Shown here piece after piece: positions 1-43,300 of a DNA stretch of 64,000 bases (its first letter is position 1; the number at the start of each line of letters is the position of its first letter). This stretch comes from Escherichia phage Bp7, in sequence record NC_019500.1. One strand, given 5' to 3'. The translations under genes were made by a program, and so were the position numbers. Below the pieces are notes generated by a model. That model was given only the letters and a program-made list of their open reading frames with translations. It did no database searches and was not told the origin of the DNA.

Positions 1-855
1 ATGAAAAACCTTCGTTTTGATTCCCAGACTAAAGAGCGTTTGACTAGCCCTTATGGCGAAATCCGTAGTCATATTAAGTTAGATACTAAAAAGTTGGCCA
101 AAAGCATTCTGAATTCTGAAGCGGTATTGATGCCCATTATCGAAGCTGCTTTAGCACGTAAATTAGCAGCTGAAAAGGCAGCTGAAACTAAAGCCGCTAA
201 GAAAGCTTCTAAAGCCAAGGTCCATAAGCATATTAAAGCCAACTTATACGGCAAAGATGCTGATACAACCCTGTTCCTAACCGAAGGTGATTCCGCTATG
301 GGTCCTTTCATTGAAGTCCGTAATAAAGACCTTCAAGGTGGCTATCCATTACGTGGTAAGGTTATGAATACCTGGGGAATGACAGCAACAGATATCATGA
401 AGAACAAGGAACTATTTGATATCTGTGCAATCACTGGATTGATTATTGGTGAACCTGCAGAGAAAACTAACTATCGTAATATTGCTATTATGACTGATGC
501 TGATGTGGATGGTACTGGTTCGATTTATCCATCATTGCTAGCCTTCTTTAGCCAATGGCCTGAATTGTTCAAACAAGGCCGAGTACGTTTCTGTAAAACT
601 CCGGTAATTATTGCCCAGGTCGGTAAAGAACAGGAATGGTTCTATGATGTTCCTAGTTATACCAAAGCTAAGGACTCTCTACCAAAACATTCTATTCGGT
701 ATATCAAAGGACTAGGTTCTCTTGAGAAAGCTGAATACCGCCGAATGATTCAAGACCCTAAATTTGATGTTGTTCAATTACCTGAAGATTGGAAAGAACA
801 GTTCGAAATGCTCCTTGGTAATGACCCTCAACTCCGTAAGGCCTGGATGTCGTAA
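1..855 (+). CDS. 39: DNA topoisomerase II large subunit, C-terminal part (5' end outside window); gp39 and gp60 regions in one continuous frame
   Basis: Toprim motif IAIMTDADVDGTGSIYP and conserved tail HSIRYIKGLGSLEKAEYRRMIQ...LRKAWMS as in T4 gp60 C-terminus; rIIA follows as in T-even phages. Confidence 0.9.
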   Translation: MKNLRFDSQTKERLTSPYGEIRSHIKLDTKKLAKSILNSEAVLMPIIEAALARKLAAEKAAETKAAKKASKAKVHKHIKANLYGKDADTTLFLTEGDSAMGPFIEVRNKDLQGGYPLRGKVMNTWGMTATDIMKNKELFDICAITGLIIGEPAEKTNYRNIAIMTDADVDGTGSIYPSLLAFFSQWPELFKQGRVRFCKTPVIIAQVGKEQEWFYDVPSYTKAKDSLPKHSIRYIKGLGSLEKAEYRRMIQDPKFDVVQLPEDWKEQFEMLLGNDPQLRKAWMS

Positions 856-7049: not shown

Positions 7050-7085
7050 TTTACAACCTCGAGAATCATGTTATAATGGTTCTCG
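7049..7085 (+). promoter_or_regulatory. T4-type early promoter (-35 GTTTAC, -10 TATAAT) with flanking 6-bp inverted repeat cgagaa/ttctcg
   Basis: GTTTAC 7049-7054, TATAAT 7072-7077, 17-bp spacer. Confidence 0.6.
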
Positions 7086-28089: not shown

Positions 28090-28123
28090 GTTTACACCAG
28101 GCTATGGTAGTGATACTATAGCC
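28090..28123 (+). promoter_or_regulatory. T4-type early promoter with 7-bp inverted repeat aggctat/atagcct around the -10
   Basis: GTTTAC 28090-28095, TACTAT 28114-28119. Confidence 0.55.
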
Positions 28124-37712: not shown

Positions 37713-37746
37713 TTTACAAACTCTTGGGAGCAGAGTATAATGCTCC
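37712..37746 (+). promoter_or_regulatory. T4-type early promoter with 6-bp inverted repeat ggagca/tgctcc around the -10
   Basis: GTTTAC 37712-37717, TATAAT 37736-37741. Confidence 0.55.
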
Positions 37747-37775
37747 TACGGATTATAAAAATTGAGGAAATTATT

Positions 37776-38075
37776 ATGAAAGAATTATTAGAGAATTACA
37801 TCAAGTGTTCAGACAATTACGTGGATTTATGTTATGGATTGAAAATATCTGAACATGATGAAGATGCGGCGCATCTGGCATTAGATACCGCAGGTAAAGC
37901 CTTGCGTAAAGCAGCTAAAGCCCAGGGCGTTGATATGGCTGAACTAAAGAAACATTTAATTATGTTTATCTCTGCTAACGTCTCTAGCCGGTCGGGTAAC
38001 AAAGCTGTCGCAAAATCAGGTGAAGAACGCACTGAACTACGCATTCAGCTCCTCAAAACCTCTGTTGGGAATTAA
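37776..38075 (+). CDS. hypothetical protein (99 aa; pseT.1 position)
   Basis: ATG 37776 after SD gaggaaa. Confidence 0.45.
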   Translation: MKELLENYIKCSDNYVDLCYGLKISEHDEDAAHLALDTAGKALRKAAKAQGVDMAELKKHLIMFISANVSSRSGNKAVAKSGEERTELRIQLLKTSVGN

Positions 38076-38983
<908 letters not shown>

Positions 38984-38984
<1 letters not shown>

Positions 38985-39181
38985 TGAATAATATCGAAAA
39001 GATTTTTCGTACAATCGAAGAAATTGAAAAACGTAAATGCTTTTTCTTCGGCGTATGGCCTTTAACTGATGGACGTATTGGCCTGGATGTGATGGACTAT
39101 AAAGATGAAGACAAGGTCGATGGTGGTATTTTTAAATCCGCTCCTGAACTCCTTGCCTTCTTGGAAGAACATTATGTATAA
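38984..39181 (+). CDS. hypothetical small protein
   Basis: 65-aa ORF; ATGA overlap with pseT. Confidence 0.4.
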
Positions 39182-39389
39182 CAAACACCATGAAGTTGAA
39201 GAAGAAGCTTATAAAGAGCTTCAGAAATTGGTAGGTCAGAATATGTCTCCTACCCTCATTAACTCACTAGCGGCCCTTCGTAATGACCTCAATGAACGTT
39301 ACAAAGGCGAGTACTATGTTGAGTTCGTTCCTCTGACTGAAGTCGTTGACCGGTTTATTGTTAACGTGAAGGTCCATACAGTACACTGA
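39174..39389 (+). CDS. hypothetical small protein (71 aa)
   Basis: ATG 39174 overlaps preceding stop (ATGTATAA). Confidence 0.4.
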   Translation: MYNKHHEVEEEAYKELQKLVGQNMSPTLINSLAALRNDLNERYKGEYYVEFVPLTEVVDRFIVNVKVHTVH

Positions 39390-39396
39390 GGTAATT

Positions 39397-39675
39397 ATGT
39401 TCCCTACTTATTCTGAAATTGTTAAAGTAGTTTTTAGTCAGATTGTATCTGATTATCTATACGAAACCGTCGACACGTCGACTGAACTAAAAGTGCACGG
39501 TCGTTTGTCTGCTATTCTGGAAATCATGTTCCCGGATGCAGTTGATGCAATCACTGTTCAACTCACGCCTGGTGCAGCATTTGCAATTGTTCCATTTAAA
39601 ATTGATAACCACATTTTGGCTATTTCATGCAAAATGGACTTCCAGAAACAAACGGTAGTTGTCGAAGCAATTTAA
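39397..39675 (+). CDS. hypothetical protein (92 aa)
   Basis: ORF with SD gaggtaatt upstream. Confidence 0.45.
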   Translation: MFPTYSEIVKVVFSQIVSDYLYETVDTSTELKVHGRLSAILEIMFPDAVDAITVQLTPGAAFAIVPFKIDNHILAISCKMDFQKQTVVVEAI

Positions 39676-39677
39676 GT

Positions 39678-39716
39678 GTTTACACTATGGTAGGACTGTG
39701 GTATAGTAGTCCTACC
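39678..39716 (+). promoter_or_regulatory. PeSL-like early promoter with 9-bp perfect inverted repeat ggtaggact/agtcctacc around the -10
   Basis: GTTTAC 39678-39683, TATAGT 39702-39707; arms 39689-39697 and 39708-39716. Confidence 0.55.
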
Positions 39717-39737
39717 GAAACAAATGAGGAAATCGAA

Positions 39738-40292
39738 ATGAGCCAGTTCTTTGAAGAGCGTAAGTTTTATAAGTTCGTTGGTGAATACACTAAAAACAAA
39801 TTCACTAATAACGGTGCTTATGGCCTCAATACAGCTTTTGCCAAGTATGTAGGTATGAACCCGTTTGAAGTTGAAATTGATTACCATAACGGGAAGCCAC
39901 GTGTAAGCCGAATTCGTGTATACGATGAGTTGATGTTTGTTGACCTGAGCAAAATCACAGGTAATCCCGATGATGCAACTAGTGTTCTTTTTAATTCAGT
40001 AGGCGCCTTTGCCCATGAATTCGAATACTTTATTGAAGTAGTACGTCCACTGGCTACTACGAGTATTGCTGTAAAGCCGGAACCTAAGCCAGTAAAAGCT
40101 ACAGCCGATTGGAAAGTGCTTATTGTTAAAAATGGTAAGATTGAAGTTCATTCTCGCCATAACACAAAGGAACAAGCCGATCGTCAGGCTGAAGAGCTTT
40201 TGACTAAGTCGTTCCAACAAGTGTGTTATATTGTTAAAGGCGACATTACCCAAGCTACCACTACCAAACAACTTAAGTTGGAGAGCATCTAA
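39738..40292 (+). CDS. hypothetical protein (184 aa)
   Basis: ATG 39738 after SD gagga; in frame with ORF 39627..40292. Confidence 0.5.
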   Translation: MSQFFEERKFYKFVGEYTKNKFTNNGAYGLNTAFAKYVGMNPFEVEIDYHNGKPRVSRIRVYDELMFVDLSKITGNPDDATSVLFNSVGAFAHEFEYFIEVVRPLATTSIAVKPEPKPVKATADWKVLIVKNGKIEVHSRHNTKEQADRQAEELLTKSFQQVCYIVKGDITQATTTKQLKLESI

Positions 40293-40525
40293 TGCTGAGC
40301 GAACAACCTATTACTGTAGAGCAGTTCCAAGTTAAAGTTAAAGAATTTGCTCAGGCCCTGATTAATAAGGTTTCTGTACGTTTTCCTGACGCAACTCTGC
40401 GAGTAATTCAGGAATCACCACGTGCGGTATTGGTTATCGTTAATCCTAAAAATGGCGGCCAGATTACCCAGTTGAAACTTGGTTCTGATGGTCTGGTCGA
40501 AGCGCAGCGAGTGTTCATAGAATGA
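40292..40525 (+). CDS. hypothetical small protein (77 aa)
   Basis: overlaps upstream stop and the cd start. Confidence 0.45.
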   Translation: MLSEQPITVEQFQVKVKEFAQALINKVSVRFPDATLRVIQESPRAVLVIVNPKNGGQITQLKLGSDGLVEAQRVFIE

Positions 40526-41067
40526 AAGCAAGCACATACCTTCAGATTGCATATCTGATTTCTCAGGAATCAAAATGTTGTTCATGGAAAGTGGGCGCGG
40601 TTATTGAAAAGAATGGCCGCATTATTTCTACAGGGTATAACGGTTCACCATCCGGTGGTGTTAACTGTTGTGACCACGCTGTGGAACAAGACTGGACCCG
40701 TGTTGTGTATGACCCAGCGCGGATGTCGCACAAATCCGTTCTTCTTAAAGAACACCGTATGGCTCATGCAGCATGGTCATCCAAAAATGAAATCCATGCT
40801 GAACTGAATGCCATTTTGTTTGCAGCTCGTACCGGAAGTTCTATTGACGGCGCTACGATGTACGTGACGTTATCTCCATGTGCAGATTGTGCTAAGTCTA
40901 TTGCGCAGTCTGGAATTAAAACATTGGTTTATGCTGAGCTATATGACCGAAATCCTGAAGGATGGGACGATATCCTCCGTGAATCAGGCATAGAAGTTAT
41001 CCAGTATAATCGTACAGGTCTCCGTTCTCTGAACTGGGAATCAATTCAAAACTATTGTGGTGAATAA
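40522..41067 (+). CDS. cd: dCMP deaminase
   Basis: 181 aa; zinc-binding deaminase motifs HAE...NAI and SPCADCAK; characteristic ISTGYNGSPSG. Confidence 0.85.
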   Translation: MKASTYLQIAYLISQESKCCSWKVGAVIEKNGRIISTGYNGSPSGGVNCCDHAVEQDWTRVVYDPARMSHKSVLLKEHRMAHAAWSSKNEIHAELNAILFAARTGSSIDGATMYVTLSPCADCAKSIAQSGIKTLVYAELYDRNPEGWDDILRESGIEVIQYNRTGLRSLNWESIQNYCGE

Positions 41068-41339
41068 TGAAATTTCGTCTAGTTAAATTTTCAGGTCTGA
41101 ACTCAAAAGGTGAAAGCTTAGTAGCCTATTCAGTAGAATATAAAAAGTACTTTTTCTCTCGATGGAAATCGTACTATAAATCTGATTGGGTTTATGCCAA
41201 CATGAATTACAAAACAGTACCTATTCTTGATAATTGCCATAGCCTATTAAGAGCTCTAAAAGAGCGTAACGCAACCACTATCAAAACTATCTGGAATAAT
41301 TATGATTTTAACCGAACAAGAAACAATTCGTCTCCGTGA
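41067..41339 (+). CDS. hypothetical protein (90 aa)
   Basis: ATGA overlap with cd. Confidence 0.4.
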   Translation: MKFRLVKFSGLNSKGESLVAYSVEYKKYFFSRWKSYYKSDWVYANMNYKTVPILDNCHSLLRALKERNATTIKTIWNNYDFNRTRNNSSP

Positions 41340-41601
41340 AAAAGTCAAGACTATTTTGTCTGTGGGTACTCACGAAGTCCTGTTTGAAAAGGCCGACGGT
41401 AGTGCACGTCGTATGACTTGTACACGTGACTTAGACCTGCTTCCATATAAAGAAGTCCAGGCCCCTGGGCCTGAAGCCAATAAAGAACCTGTTAATTATA
41501 TCAGAGTATTTGATACCAAGGTTAATGAATGGCGTTCATTCCGTTTCGATAAGCTGATTTCCGTTAATGGGCTTCAGACTGAAACTCTGCTTGTCATGTA
41601 A
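41302..41601 (+). CDS. hypothetical protein (99 aa)
   Basis: ORF between cd and gene 31. Confidence 0.45.
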   Translation: MILTEQETIRLREKVKTILSVGTHEVLFEKADGSARRMTCTRDLDLLPYKEVQAPGPEANKEPVNYIRVFDTKVNEWRSFRFDKLISVNGLQTETLLVM

Positions 41602-43260: not shown

Positions 43261-43300
43261 TTTTACTTTGGTACAGGTTGTGTTATTATAGACCTGTACC
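43261..43300 (+). promoter_or_regulatory. PeSL-like early promoter with 8-bp perfect inverted repeat ggtacagg/cctgtacc around the -10
   Basis: -35 TTTTAC 43261-43266, -10 TATTAT 43284-43289; arms 43270-43277 and 43293-43300. Confidence 0.5.

Follow-up and report, generated by a model that had tools for sequence, protein, structure and literature searches.

Described Systems Related to the pseT-cd Region

The closest described relatives of the locus analysed here are the PeSL cassettes of the phage groups RB49/phi1, PST/T4 and nt-1/KVP40 (Arbiol et al. 2010; Comeau et al. 2014) and the GoF/Frd.2/MotB.1 proteins of the Tevenvirinae. A PeSL is a composite of a σ70-like promoter and a stem-loop that commonly overlaps the −10 box, followed by a Shine-Dalgarno sequence (SD) and an ATG (PMC2839356). 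The consensus of its PST/T4 class is TTTACW-N17-TAYWAT (PMC4122927), and the definition is backed by promoter and terminator reporter assays (PMC2839356, PMC4122927). GoF together with Frd.2 and MotB.1 makes up a family with an LSm-like fold (Kim et al. 2025, PMC12152347) whose N-terminal domain is reported as a bent five-stranded antiparallel β-sheet of LSm/SH3-like type (PMC12152347). T4 GoF (ComC-alpha) is an early protein of 141 amino acids (aa), annotated as “mRNA metabolism modulator”, whose variant GoF(D25Y) stabilises the T4 gene 41 mRNA, giving a longer half-life to RNA with the gene 41 leader (PMC12152347). frd.2 is the only T4 gene of unknown function that was scored “Fit” in a CRISPRi-ART screen (PMC11879866). 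Both systems bear on a block of five short open reading frames (ORFs; 65, 71, 92, 184 and 77 aa) found between pseT and cd in a 64,000-nt stretch of Escherichia phage Bp7 (NC_019500.1; hereafter the window), in which the 184-aa ORF is the first gene after a promoter that overlaps a hairpin. We read this block, with a probability of about 0.7, as the cluster of non-essential early genes that phages of the JS98 type carry between pseT and cd, organised in two translationally coupled units, with a resident PeSL and an accessory GoF-like gene.

The block is an ordinary early-gene cluster of a known phage group. Nucleotide comparison of the 3.1 kb around it yielded 96% identity to Escherichia phages MX01 and QL01 and to Shigella phage PSD9, and ~93% identity to JS98, JS10 and IME08 of the genus Dhakavirus, and assigns the locus to the JS98-like Dhakavirus type of T4-type phages. 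From 38076 to 41067 all genes are encoded by the + strand in the order pseT (302 aa), the five short ORFs and cd (181 aa), packed tightly through the overlaps TAATG, ATGTATAA, TAATG and ATGA. The first-pass annotation of this DNA, based on the letters of the sequence, had presented the ORFs as a block equivalent to the T4 cd.x genes; the coordinates of all five were confirmed, and the gene order and the Pfam assignments of the flanking genes agree with that placement. It had also called them unannotatable, which holds with respect to function only. As regards names and families, nothing sets them apart from the usual gene set of the T4-type pseT-cd region: JS98 names them cd.4, orf214 (“similar to RB69 ORF227c”), cd.3, orf212 and cd.2, two of them carry Pfam domains of unknown function (DUFs), the 71-aa ORF belongs to the ORF227c family and the 184-aa ORF to GoF/Frd.2. 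The accompanying remark that no motif is recognised in any of the five was overturned by the Pfam and PHROG profile searches, in which each ORF matched one PHROG family, none carrying a functional assignment. Relatives among the cd.x proteins were found for the block, none of them functionally characterised. The five ORFs are real genes under purifying selection, because the ratios of nonsynonymous to synonymous substitution rates (dN/dS) between the window and JS98 are 0.06-0.38 (Table 1) and homologues occur in hundreds of phage records.

T4, T6, RB69, VR25 and JS98 were compared for the genes that they carry between pseT and cd. The order is pseT, cd.5, cd.4, cd.3, promoter, cd.2, cd.1, cd in T4; pseT, cd.4, ORF227c, cd.3, promoter, cd.2, cd in RB69; pseT, cd.3, promoter, 175-aa ORF, cd.2, cd.1, cd in T6; and pseT, a mobE-like gene on the opposite strand, cd.4, gp234, cd.3, promoter, gp232 (180 aa), cd.2, cd.1, cd in VR25. 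The window and JS98 have the RB69 order plus the 184-aa gene after the promoter. Relative to the window, T4 additionally has cd.5 and cd.1 and lacks an ORF227c-type gene.

The Promoter-Hairpin-SD Module at the cd.3 Junction

The sole larger gap of the block, 62 nt between the 92-aa and 184-aa ORFs, houses the promoter, the inverted repeat and a GAGG sequence. The promoter agrees with 10 of the 12 consensus positions, has in addition the TG (39699-39700) of an extended −10 in front of TATAGT (39702-39707), and fits the PST/T4-class PeSL consensus. It is among the three best promoter matches in 7 kb; promoter-like matches as a class are not enriched in the scanned region (16 found, 17 expected). 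Transcription is predicted to start near 39714. The promoter and repeat scans thus bore out an early promoter within a perfect 9-bp inverted repeat at 39689-39716, as the first-pass annotation had proposed, and its label “PeSL” was apt, since promoter, stem-loop over the −10 and SD/ATG match the published description (PMC2839356, PMC4122927).

The stem is one of only two inverted repeats of at least 8 bp in 1.7 kb. Folded as RNA, the hairpin has an energy of −17 kcal/mol (z = −2.2; 6 of 200 shuffles were equally good), which on its own is only mildly unusual. The arms are GGTAGGACT/AGTCCTACC in the window and JS98, GGTAGAGTT/AGCTCTACC in T4 and T6, and GGTGGAGTT/AACTCTACC in RB69. Over seven distinct orthologous sequences from three genera, which represent few independent events, 63 of 63 cells pair and three of the nine pairs are changed on both sides; in controls with the partner slid by 1-3 columns, pairing was found in just 21-57% of cells. 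Because pairing is conserved while the sequence changes on both sides, the pattern is the signature of a selected hairpin, beyond chance. This bears on the alternative that the repeat is a chance palindrome or an operator recognised in double-stranded DNA, which we consider very unlikely. A 9-bp inverted repeat within 1.7 kb would not be surprising by itself, the z-score is modest and the overlap with the −10 box is where an operator would act, but such a repeat is at odds with the compensatory changes, with the different hairpin that VR25 and IME341 have elsewhere in the same promoter, and with the unrelated stems found around the −10 at many other early promoters of the window and of other T4-type phages. 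In the cd.3 junctions of IME341 (contig L025), IME281 (L027) and VR25 (L004) the −35, −10 and SD of the promoter are retained and the hairpin around the −10 is replaced by a different short one between −35 and −10 (TCACC-AAGGAC-GGTGA; CACCA-TGGA-TGGTG). Since the hairpin lies upstream of the predicted start, it would exist only in read-through RNA coming from the pseT unit, or in single-stranded DNA, and not in transcripts from the 39679 promoter. A remark in the T4 record concerns the hairpin loop (133300-133313; L002 3301-3314), noted as formerly reported as the inverted complement; this may stem from an artefact of early sequencing, or may hint that the loop is able to invert.

The module ends with the leader AACAAATGAGGAAATCGAAATG, which is identical or near-identical at the same junction in T4, T6, JS98 and RB69-like contigs. 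An alignment of the window, JS98, VR25, T6 and T4, alongside a separate reading of RB69, shows conservation of GTTTAC, the −10 box and the leader AACAAATGAGGAAA. T4 carries the equivalent module, GGTTTACTTTACGGTAGAGTTGTGATATTATAGCTCTACCAAAACAAATGAGGAAAACAAAATG, between cd.3 and cd.2, where its GenBank record notes the early promoter Pe133295. The −35, the extended −10, the 9-bp stem around the −10 and the SD leader of Pe133295 all match those of the window, and three stem pairs differ in a compensatory manner. Pe133295 drives cd.2 directly, whereas the GoF-like gene comes first behind the promoter of the window. T4-like and RB69-like contigs have cd.2 immediately after the module, with the cd.2 ATG at the same distance from the SD; in the JS98, T6 and VR25 types the module's ATG belongs to the GoF-like gene and cd.2 comes next, with overlapping stop and start. 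The promoter is assigned to the junction because T4 and RB69, which lack the 184-aa gene, have the module driving cd.2; it is a property of the cd.3/cd.2 junction in several genera and not of the 184-aa gene. The start of cd.2 differs in RB69 itself: the ATG used in RB69-like contigs (GAAATAGAAATGCTAAGT) reads AGG (GAAATCGAAAGGCTAAGT), and the annotated cd.2, longer by 6 residues, begins at an ATG within the SD region (CAATGAGGG). This can be a true shift of the start codon or a sequencing difference.

The 39679 module is one copy of a dispersed PeSL; in the form GTTTAC-N35-AACAAATGAGGAAA it recurs at several loci of other T4-type genomes. The pattern GTTTAC-N32-38-AACAAATGAGGAAA was found in viral contigs at the cd.3 junction and at unrelated loci, with 4 copies each in two S16-like genomes. 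Stems around the −10 accompany at least five early-type promoters on the + strand of the window (7050, 28091, 37713, 39679 and 43262); PeSL architecture is therefore common in this genome. The four other promoters (7050-7077, 28091-28119, 37713-37741 and 43262-43289, all +) read TTTAC[AT]-N16-17-TAnnAT followed by SD and ATG, and their stems are 8-13 bp long. Like the published cassettes, the module combines promoter, stem-loop and SD, is intergenic, stands beside a variably present ORF and coincides with a break in sequence identity. It differs from them in that the ORF is not bracketed by two PeSLs and in being a stable feature of one junction across genera, in contrast to the PeSL as marker of recent insertion.

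The 184-aa Gene and Its Product

Position 39738 is an internal ATG of the listed ORF 39627-40292. It is the correct start of the 184-aa gene, because GAGG (39726-39729) lies 8 nt upstream and every homologue of the protein begins with MSxFFEE. Longer readings (221 aa from 39627; 201 aa in PSD9) were rejected: they overlap cd.3 and have no SD, and the homologues align from MSxFFEE. The protein is 87% identical to JS98 orf212, 48% to VR25 gp232 and 30% to the T6 175-aa ORF (EcT6_00217). These three and RB32 ORF214c are phrog_5804 homologues in the same slot, distinguished from the 184-aa protein by sequence divergence only, and all are annotated as “hypothetical protein” without a family link to GoF. 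The slot is filled in Dhakavirus, Gaprivervirus and many Tequatrovirus, and a distant family member occupies another locus in Serratia phage CHI14, between 30.8 and 30.7. The family was found by tblastn in 375 phage records, against 794 with Cd.2. A word-indexed protein search with the 184-aa protein returned close relatives only; when 1.84 billion representative proteins were searched exhaustively with a profile, 24 clusters were obtained, nearly all of 160-180 aa, with no cellular member among them. A mixed alignment brought in T6-type and Serratia-type members, along with some truncated or frameshifted fragments. One 644-nt metagenome contig encodes a 114-aa product (P0022) in which an N-terminal segment matching PF08993 is fused to the N-terminus of a T6-type GoF-like protein, either through recombination or as an artefact of assembly.

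The 184-aa gene is accessory, variably present and fast-evolving. Between the window and JS98, dN about equals dS over codons 76-120, and protein evolution is the fastest of the block. Over 39850-40110 (residues ~40-125) nucleotide identity to JS98 falls to 73-87%, compared with 95-100% in the flanks, a divergence that may stem from relaxed constraint, from diversifying selection or from the exchange of part of an allele.

The protein very probably belongs to the GoF/Frd.2 superfamily. Its N-terminal region gave a weak match to the PHROG goF family “mRNA metabolism modulator” (phrog_2980, 4e-5), and BLASTP against T4 GoF gave 7e-5. Profile-profile comparison with hhalign extended this: a profile of close homologues matched the T4 GoF family at 95% (E 3.5e-8), and a broader profile that contained no GoF sequence matched it at 97.6% (E 3.7e-12) over 91 columns and the Frd.2 of the window at 89.5% (E 2e-6). 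PHROG goF families were matched by 9-11 of the 23 sequences of alignment A4, T4 GoF itself included. The motifs FExxKWYxF, N..IA..(I/L)G..PF and E(F/A)xxFxEVxxP (also read EFxYFxEVxxP) are shared. Frd.2, found both in T4 and in the window, where its gene lies just after gene 32, is of the same superfamily, and a motif EFxHFIEV is common to both proteins. It is a paralogue of the 184-aa protein; the window therefore encodes at least two GoF-like superfamily members. Frd.2 is shorter (120 aa), conserved across T4-likes and encoded by a T4 fitness gene, in contrast to the accessory and far more variable 184-aa gene.

AlphaFold2 (AF2), supplied with 28 family sequences, modelled the protein as two domains joined by a low-confidence linker, with a mean predicted local distance difference test score (pLDDT) of 81; another model had a pLDDT of 71. 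Linker and C-terminal domain are variable in the family alignment. Fold matches in BFVD comprised VR7 GoF and numerous Straboviridae proteins that are uncharacterised, several of them often encoded by one genome. The predicted build, a small β-rich N-terminal domain, a flexible linker and a separate, subfamily-specific C-terminal domain, is that of the GoF family. T4 GoF thus resembles the 184-aa protein in its homologous N-terminal domain and in overall architecture, and both genes are early, phage-restricted Tevenvirinae genes; they differ in locus (39-goF-cef in T4, cd.3/cd.2 here) and in the C-terminal domain, that of GoF being unrelated to the β-β-α-β unit of the 184-aa protein. Several candidate relationships were discarded. 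A HicB- or double-stranded RNA-binding domain (dsRBD)-like C-terminal domain, suggested by “FT.eEA...A” after two strands, found no support when six C-terminal domains were scanned against Pfam with E allowed up to 10. The Pfam DOMON hits (E 0.03 with the full-length protein and 0.0078 with just the C-terminal domain) reach 15-17 bits against a cutoff of 32.7 and are attributed to chance, and the top Foldseek matches in the PDB (retinoic-acid-binding proteins, the DRB4 dsRBD pair and one SmAP at E 3) do not rise above chance.

Proposed Expression of the Locus and Origin of the GoF-Like Gene

In the reading that we favour, unit 1 (pseT-cd.4-orf71-cd.3) would be read from an upstream early promoter near 37713, and unit 2 (the 184-aa gene, cd.2 and cd) would begin at the promoter 39679-39707. 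Host σ70 RNA polymerase would start early transcripts ~7 nt past the −10 box, near 39714, encoding the GoF-like protein, Cd.2 and dCMP deaminase. The 184-aa gene would use the ribosome-binding site of the module, the one that cd.2 uses in T4 and RB69. In read-through RNA of unit 1 the hairpin may attenuate transcription or provide a stable 3′ end, and the ~60-bp conserved module may also be a site of homologous exchange. The products of cd.4, the ORF227c-type gene, cd.3 and cd.2 are small, conserved early proteins. The GoF-like protein is proposed to act post-transcriptionally, early in infection, on RNA or on an RNA-handling host factor, by analogy to GoF(D25Y), and would be dispensable in the laboratory and under host-dependent selection.

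How the gene came to the junction can be explained in more than one way. The first-pass annotation had taken the promoter-hairpin as the mark of a cassette-borne gene, that is, of a mobile PeSL cassette integrated as a mini-circle between cd.3 and cd.2 independently of its neighbours. Part of that proposal stands: the gene is present in 375 records compared with 794 for cd.2, T4 and RB69, otherwise collinear in the flanks, lack it, and T4 and T6 differ by its clean presence or absence in nearly identical flanks (Cd.3 of the T6-like contig L026 is 100% identical to that of T4). Identity to VR25 is 92-98% in cd.3 and ~50-70% from 39673 onward, the drop falling exactly at the PeSL; because of this break the module looks like a recombination junction. 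The family member elsewhere in CHI14 is compatible with mobility, and the PeSL model permits a redundant downstream PeSL to be lost later (PMC4122927, Fig. 6B legend). The inference from promoter to cassette does not hold, as the module corresponds to that of phages without the gene. There is a single PeSL, and no promoter or stem-loop separates the 184-aa gene from cd.2, whose start overlaps its stop (TAATG); the two-PeSL mini-circle topology is therefore absent. The copy in CHI14 lacks its own promoter and begins 7 nt after the preceding ORF. In three genera exactly this slot of the cd.3/cd.2 junction holds divergent alleles (30% and 48% identity), diverged in parallel with neighbouring Cd.3 (43% to T4/T6); long residence therefore fits at least as well as repeated insertion, and is slightly favoured by these slot-bound alleles. 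On balance we regard arrival as a mobile cassette as rather unlikely. A better candidate, somewhat short of an even chance, is that the GoF-like gene is ancestral and was lost in the T4 and RB69 lineages by deletion from its start codon to that of cd.2, which would have fused cd.2 to the resident promoter and SD. The shared position in Dhakavirus, Gaprivervirus and many Tequatrovirus would follow from this, as would the distance between SD and cd.2 ATG in gene-less phages, equal to that of the GoF-like start elsewhere. Both starts have an AATG context in the window (GAAATG / CTAATG), and T4 Cd.2 has one extra residue at the junction (MLLSEKP, MLSEKP in T6). Such a history needs at least two independent and equally precise deletions, however, and the T4 junction (AAAACAAAATGTTGCTAAG) cannot be obtained by simply joining T6 sequences.

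For the function of the protein, a mechanism directed at RNA, drawn from the GoF analogy, is a tentative suggestion, and about as likely is that the protein serves host takeover or counter-defence by binding a host protein, its N-terminal barrel being a mere scaffold. The latter would suit an early promoter, an accessory distribution, a phage-restricted and multi-copy family with variable C-terminal domains, and the highest dN/dS of the block (0.38), with the near equality of dN and dS over residues 76-120 arising between close relatives; wild-type GoF, moreover, has no clear effect on RNA (PMC12152347). Against it, no similarity to a known anti-defence protein or inhibitor was found in Pfam, PHROGs or the PDB, and the variable stretch is mostly predicted loops and linker, for which relaxed constraint accounts no worse than an arms race.

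Several observations weigh against the favoured reading of a JS98-type cluster with resident PeSL and GoF-like gene. Wild-type GoF and MotB.1 had little effect in the reporter assay, RNA stabilisation being that of the gain-of-function mutant (PMC12152347), and the residue aligned with GoF D25 is N25, which neither supports nor excludes RNA binding. The homology to GoF is confined to the N-terminal domain, at ~23-31% identity, and T4 MotB.1 is weakly matched by the broader profile in hhalign (30%, E 5e-4). An LSm/SH3-like fold was not recovered by Foldseek against the PDB with either model (pLDDT 71 and 81; best E 0.3), and outside the family no relative of the C-terminal domain could be recognised. 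At the junction, the hairpin is not a canonical intrinsic terminator because no T-run follows it: the stem is succeeded by GAAACAAATGAGG, and the terminator scan did not report it. Promoter activity, transcription start and any 3′ end are all predictions.

An observation on the upstream side of the module concerns cd.3. Between the window (39397-39700) and VR25 (L004 1656-2000) this gene forms an island of ~270 bp with 92-98% identity in flanks of ~50-70%, bounded on the right by its stop codon and the PeSL and on the left by a short gap before cd.3. It looks like a recent exchange of a single gene between genera, the Dhakavirus-type window and the Gaprivervirus VR25.

The Other Genes of the Block and Its Surroundings

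The coordinates of the features described are collected in Table 1. By sequence and synteny, the 65-, 92- and 77-aa ORFs are assigned as orthologues of T4 Cd.4, Cd.3 and Cd.2 (BLASTP identities of 54%, 43% and 64%; E 4e-26 to 8e-30). The 65-aa protein is 95% identical to its JS98 counterpart, 85% to that of VR25, 54% to T4 Cd.4 (E 4e-26) and 40% to RB69 Cd.4. For the 92-aa protein, identity is 43% to Cd.3 of T4/T6 and 95% to that of VR25; for the 77-aa protein it is 64-69% to Cd.2 of T4/T6 and 80% to that of RB69. The end of cd.2 overlaps the start of cd (ATGA). The 71-aa ORF begins at an internal ATG of the listed ORF 39105-39389. Its product is 73% identical to RB69 ORF227c and has no counterpart in T4; the family was found by tblastn in 336 phage records, of Mosigvirus, Dhakavirus, Gaprivervirus and Enterobacter and Klebsiella T4-likes, and searches of Pfam and the PDB with this protein gave no match. 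A PDB sequence search with all five proteins gave no accepted relative; a de novo designed ATPase, matched at E 7.5e-4 over linker and helix, was dismissed as a compositional match. A literature search on cd.2, cd.3, cd.4, DUF7355 and DUF7320 found no functional work.

Table 1. Features of the pseT-cd block and related elements in the window (positions refer to the whole stretch; dN/dS is window versus JS98)
Feature	Position	Strand	Evidence and remarks
σ70 (T4 early-type) promoter	39678..39707	+	GTTTACA −35 (39678-39684; TTTACA 39679-39684), 17-nt spacer, extended −10 TGgTATAGT (39699-39707)
Hairpin, 9-bp perfect stem, 10-nt loop, encloses the −10 box	39689..39716	+	Arms 39689-39697 / 39708-39716; inverted-repeat search
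Conserved leader, 3′ end of module	39719..39740	+	SD GAGG 39726-39729, start codon 39738-39740
Probable GoF/Frd.2-superfamily protein, 184 aa (JS98 orf212; phrog_5804), first gene after promoter	39738..40292	+	phrog_5804 5e-71; dN/dS 0.38
N-terminal domain (predicted)	residues 1-101 (39738-40040)	+	AF2 pLDDT ~90
Disordered linker (predicted)	residues ~105-121	+	AF2; residues 107-121 pLDDT below 50
C-terminal β-β-α-β domain (predicted)	residues ~123-167 (40104-40238)	+	AF2 pLDDT ~80
Frd.2 orthologue, 120 aa	27174..27536	+	Pfam FRD2 1.1e-32; family HMM (hidden Markov model) E 6.8e-9 over N-terminal domain
pseT (polynucleotide kinase/phosphatase), left boundary	38076..38984	+	Pfam HAD_PNKP 2.6e-57, AAA_33 5e-21; phrog_505 8e-123; 89% identity to T4 PseT
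Cd.4 orthologue, 65 aa	38984..39181	+	Start overlaps pseT stop (TAATG); phrog_2360 4e-37; dN/dS 0.14
RB69 ORF227c / JS98 orf214 family, 71 aa	39174..39389	+	Overlaps cd.4 end by 8 nt; phrog_3609 2e-41; dN/dS 0.06
Cd.3 orthologue, 92 aa, last gene of upstream pseT unit	39397..39675	+	Pfam DUF7355 1.1e-31; phrog_1695; dN/dS 0.06
Cd.2 orthologue, 77 aa	40292..40525	+	Pfam DUF7320 5.9e-34; phrog_1504; dN/dS 0.23
cd (dCMP deaminase), right boundary	40522..41067	+	Pfam dCMP_cyt_deam_1 8e-25; phrog_174 2e-72; 69% identity to T4 Cd

Two neighbouring genes outside the block were also recorded. A 111-aa ORF (37740-38075, +; RB32 ORF217c-like according to the JS98 annotation) stands where T4 has pseT.1, just upstream of pseT. 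No Pfam family matches it, and its own strong promoter, TTTACA-17-TATAAT at 37713-37741, agrees with 11 of 12 consensus positions and carries a stem. The gp31.1 orthologue (41302-41601, +), a small β-barrel early protein according to its match to Pfam WYL_2 (Sm-like SH3 β-barrel, 2.6e-12), is encoded only 1 kb downstream of the GoF-like gene.

Significance

The result is mostly housekeeping: four ORFs receive the names of conserved hypothetical proteins and one is assigned to the GoF/Frd.2 superfamily. A bolder possibility, which we hold to be a long shot, is that the proteins of the cd.3/cd.2 slot form a distinct and fast-evolving GoF-like branch whose conserved C-terminal β-β-α-β domain would be an effector aimed at a host factor of RNA handling or RNA-based defence. 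The gene lies directly downstream of the pseT RNA-repair unit and is proposed to be expressed in the first minutes of infection. If the effector reading were true, host-specific counter-defence would show in where the gene is present or absent and in how its alleles vary at the PeSL recombination junction, and the GoF family would be a set of modular early RNA-directed adaptors rather than one orphan gene.

For the promoter-hairpin, the comparison shows an element of the junction, conserved and shared with T4, and not the tag of a newly arrived cassette. The tie between GoF and phrog_5804, whose 375 phage records are all “hypothetical”, would extend a family that includes the T4 fitness gene frd.2. 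The junction itself offers a natural example of one conserved promoter/SD module that serves different first genes in close relatives and, with its covarying hairpin and the break of identity at the module, would be a convenient site to test the PeSL shuffling model.

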